Sequence record: NC_073070.1
Strand: one strand, 5' to 3'
Origin: Escherichia phage CEC_Kaz_2018
DNA length: 44,283 nt
The notes under the pieces were generated by a model. That model did not search any database. It had not been told where the DNA came from and saw only the letters and a list, made by a program, of their open reading frames with translations. Position numbers and translations under genes: made by a program. This document shows, piece by piece, positions 37,181-37,219 of the stretch (within the stretch, counting starts at the first letter, position 1; every line of letters begins with the position of its first letter).

Positions 37181-37219
37181 TGCAAACCGCATTTTNCACN
37201 CAGCATAATGCGGTTTGCA
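37181..37219. repeat. perfect 13-bp inverted repeat TGCAAACCGCATT-N13-AATGCGGTTTGCA
   Basis: direct reading (two N's in spacer). Confidence 0.8.

Follow-up and report, generated by a model that had tools for sequence, protein, structure and literature searches.

The window, by which we mean the whole stretch of 44,283 bp that was analysed, is a Dhillonvirus, that is, an HK578/SO-1-like coliphage. The locus considered here lies within a non-coding control region of 533 bp, located between the helicase-primase gene and small leftward genes, among them one encoding 101 aa (36770-37075). The original prediction had placed an inverted repeat in a dense regulatory region, and this description of its surroundings is borne out. 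The repeat-rich character of the locus is already known as well, as the SO-1 record (NC_013600) labels the homologous non-coding stretch, which occupies the same setting between the helicase-primase and small leftward genes (40178-40657), as "region B; direct, inverted and palindromic repeat sequences". The components of the inverted repeat are as follows.

37181-37193: left arm, TGCAAACCGCATT; the conserved arm, part of the block CTGCAAACYGCATTTTTCAC that adjoins the cut described below
37194-37206: spacer, ttNcacNcagcat; 13 nt, with N at 37196 and 37200, the first 6 bases conserved and the remainder variable
37207-37219: right arm, AATGCGGTTTGCA; the variable arm, whose final GCA is part of the invariant GCATTGGTTGCC box

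The same region is populated by a number of other short elements, several of which recur elsewhere in the genome. One of these is the 9-mer ATTGGTTGC, which reads GCAACCAAT on the other strand and is found 11 times in the window against 0.5 copies expected.

2546, 5488, 5505, 7178, 26404, 36564, 37129, 37500, 37535, 37589 and 40392: copies of ATTGGTTGC, with near-copies at 37098 and 37219

Almost all of these copies are intergenic and oriented with the downstream genes, and their TTGC frequently forms the beginning of a -35-like hexamer spaced 17 nt from TATAnT. The 9-mer is probably a shared promoter or operator box. A candidate binder of this -35-like box is a 109-aa protein, the gene of which (39872-40201, minus strand) is located directly upstream of the helicase-primase gene. 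The C-terminal helix-turn-helix (HTH) of the protein matches both HTH_23 and Sigma70_r4_2 (E ~1e-6); the annotation of phage B2 names this protein "DNA recombination nuclease inhibitor gamma". Another recurring element is the stretch at 37287-37473, which adjoins the helicase-primase gene and is 84% identical to 20490-20665 (also 20691-20830), located between the tail chaperone and tape-measure genes. The two stretches correspond to "region B" and "region A" of the SO-1 annotation, and each contains a GC-rich hairpin, CAGACGAGGGGGG-loop-CCCCCGTCTAG, with a loop that is variable in relatives, followed by many GTCCCGC/GCGGGAC repeats that could be iterons or binding sites of a phage protein. A 22-nt element containing the palindrome TTGGT-TGCAC-ACCAA is likewise found twice, at 37090-37106 and 26400-26421 (95% identical), at the head of two leftward/rightward units, where it overlaps the -10/+1 region directly before the first gene. 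Two coding sequences annotated in B2 cross the region and are both probably spurious. One, at 37297-37554 (minus strand), overlies the GTCCCGC repeats, and its start codon in the stored B2 sequence is ATT. The other, a 44-aa reading frame at 37072-37206 (minus strand), runs across the cut and the left arm; it was rejected, as Pfam yields no match, Zar3M, SO-1 and PEC9 lack its ATG, and one lineage carries a 1-nt deletion.

An inverted-repeat search of the window pairs TGCAAACCGCATT with AATGCGGTTTGCA at 13/13 Watson-Crick positions across a 13-nt spacer, precisely as the original prediction had claimed for 37181-37219, and this is the sole perfect inverted repeat of at least 11 bp with a spacer of up to 40 nt in the entire window. 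When the genome was modeled by 300 first-order Markov simulations, perfect 13-bp repeats were expected by chance at a mean of 0.047 per genome, with at least one present in 3% of the simulations; the rarity of the repeat is unusual, not extreme. The two N calls noted in the original prediction are indeed located in the spacer, at 37196 and 37200, and both read T in Zar3M. With these positions set to T, following Zar3M, the window sequence is able to form the proposed hairpin, which folds more stably than shuffled sequence as plus-strand RNA (-26.3 kcal/mol, z -4.3), as minus-strand RNA (-21.7 kcal/mol, z -2.9) and as DNA (-14.7, z -3.9).

One possible account is that no single molecule carries the perfect symmetry, which would then be an artefact created by a reference-guided or mixed-population consensus. 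The CDS coordinates and the length of 44,283 are identical to those of phage B2 (MG581355.1), whereas the two sequences differ at 4,030 positions (9.1%), mostly third codon positions and without any indel. Furthermore, all 65 B2 CDS start with ATG in the window versus 55 in stored B2, where two start with ATT, and one N of the window falls exactly at the site of an extra base in relatives (CCCNGATT). The window is probably a consensus built upon the B2 frame, or else the annotation was made on the window sequence. A consensus on a reference frame matters for indels and less so for the repeat. An artefact is made conceivable by this indel-free frame, by the 70 N in the window, two of them in the spacer, and by the similar placement of Zar3M, which is 95-97% identical to the window over most of its length, on the coordinates of PTXU06 with 577 N. 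However, both arms are free of N, and the right arm of the window is found in neither scaffold, as B2 has TCTGCAACTCGCA and PTXU06 has AATACAACTCGCA at this site. It is nonetheless identical in the window and Zar3M, two genomes that differ elsewhere, the spacer included. Since the right arm is absent from B2 and present in Zar3M on a different frame, it was not inherited from a reference sequence, and we regard a consensus artefact as very improbable.

The region matches approximately 156 phage records at 80-92% identity, and 26 distinct sequences of it, derived from GenBank phages, IMG/VR and metagenomes, were aligned. Among these 26 sequences, the left arm and the subsequent TTTTCAC (together the block CTGCAAACYGCATTTTTCAC) are essentially invariant, with the main variation being C/T at 37188, while the remaining spacer bases and the initial ten of the right arm are variable. 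All 13 pairs are present only in the window and in the near-identical Zar3M; the other 24 haplotypes retain 6-10 Watson-Crick pairs of 13, with SO-1 at 7/13. When the right arm of the window was used as a BLAST query against the 156 phage records, the best match was Zar3M (37/38), followed by UDS3lw (34/37), and no further near-perfect right arm was recovered besides that of Zar3M. The hairpins of the relatives show no excess stability over shuffled sequence (z +0.7 to -0.5). The perfect palindrome is specific to one lineage in this sequence comparison, comprising the window and Zar3M. Among the relatives, the right arm tends to resemble a degraded direct repeat of the left one, alignable as CTGCAA(A)CT(C)GCATT: in most of them, the right element scores 7-9 as a direct copy versus 3-7 as an inverted copy. 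The window reverses these scores, with 5 as a direct copy versus 13 as an inverted one. Conservation in relatives, which the original prediction had named as a check upon itself, is consequently found for the left arm alone and does not extend to the symmetry.

This pattern bears directly upon the possibility that the repeat is a protein-binding palindrome, such as an operator or an origin element, or a cruciform in "region B", which would then be a possible replication origin or early/middle switch beside the helicase-primase gene. The location is certainly suggestive, as the same 533 bp hold the putative GTCCCGC iterons, an AT-rich stretch and the ATTGGTTGC boxes, the homologous SO-1 stretch bears its repeat label, and the gene for the small HTH protein is nearby. 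Conversely, the two half-sites of a palindromic operator should be conserved together, whereas here the left is invariant and the right variable, which leaves the proposed second operator type without support. The geometry is also unfavorable: a centre-to-centre distance of 26 bp with a 13-nt spacer suits neither a dimeric HTH operator nor easy cruciform extrusion. In addition, the duplicated part of region B (37287-37473, similar to 20490-20665) excludes the repeat. Our literature search found no paper explaining the "region B" annotation of SO-1. We consider an operator, origin or cruciform role for the palindrome quite unlikely.

A different reading of the same alignment is that the conserved unit is a hairpin on the minus strand, either within the RNA of a leftward read-through transcript or at a single-stranded DNA 3' end on the non-packaged side. 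Its G/U-rich arm would be fixed and the partner would drift by pair-keeping transitions, with the lineage of the window carrying the strongest version. When G-U is allowed, 88.2% of the alignment cells form standard pairs on the minus strand versus 66% on the plus strand, and 9-13 of the 13 pairs are kept in all relatives, compared to 28-49% pairing when the partners are slid by 1-3 columns. The non-Watson-Crick cells comprise 78 that are G-U on the minus strand, 4 that are G-U on the plus strand and 36 that are neither. At several positions A-U alternates with G-U, or C-G with U-G, one pair runs through U-A, U-G and C-G, and the flanking genes are coded on the minus strand. Despite this, only 1 of the 13 pairs has changed on both sides, stem position 7 is broken in 7 of the 26 sequences, and a shuffle control for the pairing is uninformative because the 3' arm hardly varies. 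The hairpins of relatives have z values around zero as RNA (+0.66 and +0.14) and do not form as DNA, while RNAalifold, when given the 26 sequences, prefers another long-range fold that involves invariant columns only (covariation term -0.34) and does not recover the hairpin, an outcome that is uninformative. An Rfam scan of 36900-37700 on both strands yielded only chance-level snoRNA and miRNA matches. For the RNA hairpin in the original prediction the support is weak, as the minus-strand pairing with G-U is accompanied by a two-sided change in a single pair, and by neither stability in relatives nor an Rfam match. Moreover, two direct copies with an A/C-rich core between TGC and GCA flanks automatically give G-U compatibility on the opposite strand. 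Because direct copies would explain this compatibility, we retain the minus-strand hairpin as a rival and not as the main reading, and judge it unlikely both as the conserved unit and in its account of a fixed arm with a drifting partner.

The repeat does resemble a Rho-independent terminator in being an intergenic stem-loop. This candidate was rejected, as the loop is 13 nt, a terminator scan made no call and the hairpin is unstable in relatives. There is no U-tract after the stem on either strand, the tails being GUCACC (minus) and UUGGUUG (plus). Scanning for sigma-70 and terminator consensus sequences likewise returned nothing at the repeat.

Next to the conserved side of the repeat lies the packaging end that has been mapped in relatives. 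For the relative BF9, a PhageTerm report gives the termini as Redundant, Permuted, Headful (pac), orientation Reverse (PMC10059673, Supplementary Figure S1), with a single minus-strand peak at 28168 (T=0.53, p=8e-65), no plus-strand peak and a classification under "Headful (pac), P1 type" (PMC10059673). Base 28168 of BF9 is the last G of ...ATCTGCTG|TAACTGCAAACC and aligns with 37176 of the window. The BF9 record's own start lies elsewhere, making the PhageTerm position independent of record starts. Six GenBank records (PTXU06, WFI, UDS3lw, PEC9, SP1 and Zar3M) share one start nucleotide, also aligned with 37176, such that the junction reads ...GATCGCTATCTGCTG | TGACTGCAAAC... in the orientation of the window. 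In the linear records of Zar3M and UDS3lw, both termini are located directly beside the repeat. By homology, we place the pac end of the window at 37176|37177 with packaging leftwards, in which case the predicted order of entry would be the 101-aa gene, the lysis genes, terS/terL and then the head and tail genes. The repeat starts 4 nt past the cut, on the non-packaged side.

Several observations agree with a headful pac site. Firstly, the pile-up of ends on one strand that is expected of such a site is found in relatives, both in BF9 and in the six record starts. Secondly, the terminase is of a headful type: TerL matches Terminase_6N (E=1.9e-14) and Terminase_6C, and TerS (32012-32584) has a weak match, below curated cut-offs, to Sf6_terminase and GP3_package (Sf6/P22 gp3 type). 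Thirdly, invariant blocks are located on both sides of the cut in the 26 sequences, with the bases right at the cut varying among TGA, CAA, CGA and TAA. Headful packaging has also been reported for the Dhillonviruses Opt-212 and UDS3lw. The report of a 10-nt 5' cos end, ATCTTAAGGG, in EE09 (OR756193) is in conflict with these headful calls and with the terminase type (PMC10673088). This cos motif was rejected for the window, where it occurs only with a mismatch, at chance level and inside the tail genes, and we regard the EE09 report as an apparent outlier. The ends of metagenome and IMG/VR contigs do not coincide with the cut, which is to be expected of assemblies of permuted genomes. In the literature searched, we found neither a description of a Dhillonvirus pac site nor one of the coincidence between "region B" and a packaging end, and the BASEL and Kenyan papers give no Dhillonvirus termini. 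As a separate observation, the identity between Zar3M and the window is approximately 95% to the right of the cut (37180-40821) versus 82%, with 26 gaps, to the left (35699-37174), so that a mosaic (recombination) boundary relative to Zar3M coincides with the packaging end.

Around the cut, the following features were recognized.

37104-37132, minus strand: promoter-like site for the leftward 101-aa gene (36770-37075), read from the sequence
37129-37137 and 37219-37227: outer 9-bp inverted pair, GCAACCAAT / ATTGGTTGN, centre 37178; the genome-wide box, invariant in relatives
37152-37158 and 37192-37198: 7-bp inverted pair, TGAAAAN / TTTTNCA (TGAAAAA/TTTTTCA), centre 37175, almost invariant in relatives
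37162-37165: lone GATC on the packaged side, 11 nt away from the cut and unchanged among relatives
37172-37184: small dyad, TGCgGT-G-ACtGCA (core TGCTGT-G-ACTGCA), centre 37178, 5/6 pairs, read from the sequence
37176..37177, minus strand: predicted pac end with its 5' end at 37176, placed from the BF9 peak at ...GATCGCTATCTGCTG|TAACTGCAAAC and six record starts

Three inverted pairs are accordingly nested around ~37178: the core dyad, TGAAAAA/TTTTTCA and GCAACCAAT/ATTGGTTGC. N is also called at 37158 and 37227. The small dyad spans the cut and reaches four bases into the left arm. The 7-bp pair flanks the cut, with alignment columns 69-75 pairing with 109-115, and the last two bases of the left arm belong to its TTTTTCA. 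In a genome-wide dyad scan with a half-width of 52, centre 37178 has 23/52 matches (mean 13, sd 3.2) and ranks 94th of 88,356, a rank that is notable because the pac end had determined the position in advance. The promoter-like site consists of a -35 TTGCAT (37132-37127), a 17-nt spacer and a -10 TATTTT (37109-37104; TATATT in relatives), and it failed a stricter consensus scan. As for the GATC, pac cleavage in P1 depends upon Dam methylation. Dam-like adenine methyltransferases are encoded by these phages (6020-6505 in B2; "N-6-adenine-methyltransferase" in WFI). In light of both, the invariant GATC beside the cut may merit testing.

We favor, with moderate confidence, an explanation in which the repeat is a local rewrite of a variable stretch of the pac site: the left arm would belong to the pac site, and the perfect palindrome would have no conserved role of its own. 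The terminase would make its first cut between 37176 and 37177 and package headfuls leftwards. The left-arm block CTGCAAACYGCATTTTTCAC would constitute the cut-proximal block on the non-packaged side, inside the dyad arrangement at ~37178, and may be what the terminase recognizes. The right arm would be variable filler separating the CTGCAAACYGCATTTTTCAC block from the ATTGGTTGCC box. In the lineage of the window and Zar3M, four clustered transitions, converting the core AACTC to GGTTT, would have given the exact complement of the left arm, presumably in one intrastrand template-switch event of the quasipalindrome-correction type. The evidence for such an event lies in the comparison with the nearest haplotypes, AATGCAACTCGCA and AATGCGACTCGCA, from which the right arm of the window has 3-4 differences within 5 nt. 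All of these are transitions and all restore complementarity, one of them being a G that faces the lineage's own C at 37188, and the flanks differ far less than the right arm does. Clustered changes copied from the other arm are a classic sign of intrastrand template switching, and the changes here, which produce an exact complement templated by the other arm, carry the signature of quasipalindrome correction. In its perfect form, the hairpin is probably neutral and would at most modulate the site.

Several observations run counter to this explanation. The palindrome allele is shared by two genomes with a mosaic relationship, implying that it has endured and might be under selection; alternatively, the palindrome may owe its origin to selection favoring a stronger hairpin. 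Against the pac assignment as such stand the EE09 cos report and the distance of 4.5 kb between the non-coding cut site and terS. The G-U bias of the minus strand could reflect selection for a minus-strand hairpin instead of being a by-product of direct repeats. It is also evident that the ATTGGTTGC box cannot alone specify pac, because the genome contains at least 9 other copies. A variant of the pac explanation would assign the stem-loop a working role within an unusually precise pac site, its secondary structure, in DNA or RNA, beyond the cut on the non-packaged side setting the efficiency of packaging initiation, with the window and Zar3M carrying a strengthened allele. We find this variant distinctly unlikely.

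If the left arm does belong to a pac site, as we prefer to think, then the site combines characteristics of several known systems. The pac site of P1 consists of clusters of Dam-methylated TGATCA/G hexamers inside pacA. The site described here similarly has a unique headful-terminase cut within a short region, with repeated short motifs on both flanks. However, its motifs are GCAACCAAT/ATTGGTTGC and TGAAAAA/TTTTTCA, it has a single GATC, and it is non-coding and 4.5 kb upstream of terS. In SPP1 (pacL-pacC-pacR) and in P22 and Sf6, the pac sites are found in or beside the small-terminase gene, and the cuts of P22 are spread over ~120 bp. These sites share with the Dhillonvirus site the presence of conserved sequence on both the packaged and non-packaged sides, together with a TerS that is weakly of the Sf6/P22 gp3 type. 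Unlike them, the present site is far from terS, and a single nucleotide accounts for about half of the coverage starts (T=0.53 in BF9). Lambda has cohesive ends, unit-length packaging and a cosN with partial twofold symmetry. With a cut that falls upon or close to the midpoint of an imperfect dyad (core TGCTGT-G-ACTGCA, centre 37178), the present site is reminiscent of cosN, whereas the Dhillonviruses are called redundant and permuted. Quasipalindrome template-switch mutations are described by the Ripley model and by the hotspots of E. coli thyA and lacZ. The four transitions within 5 nt resemble these in that clustered changes perfect an imperfect inverted repeat, although the event in the phage lineage is reconstructed from comparison only. 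Lastly, SO-1 "region B" is homologous to the stretch studied here, but its version of the repeat has 7/13 pairs and its annotation is without mention of a packaging end.

Taken at this level, the palindrome is lineage-specific, and what is conserved at the locus is most likely a pac site, with the left arm as part of its block on the non-packaged side. Dhillonviruses are among the most often isolated coliphages and are candidates for therapy. A pac end placed to the nucleotide, with its invariant flanks mapped, offers a target for the study of transduction risk and for the engineering of packaging signals, as well as a uniform point at which to begin genome records. The interest of the palindrome is chiefly that it appears to be a natural quasipalindrome made perfect where DNA ends are produced. 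Should the hairpin affect cutting, the natural variant pair would test whether hairpin strength tunes the initiation of headful packaging.
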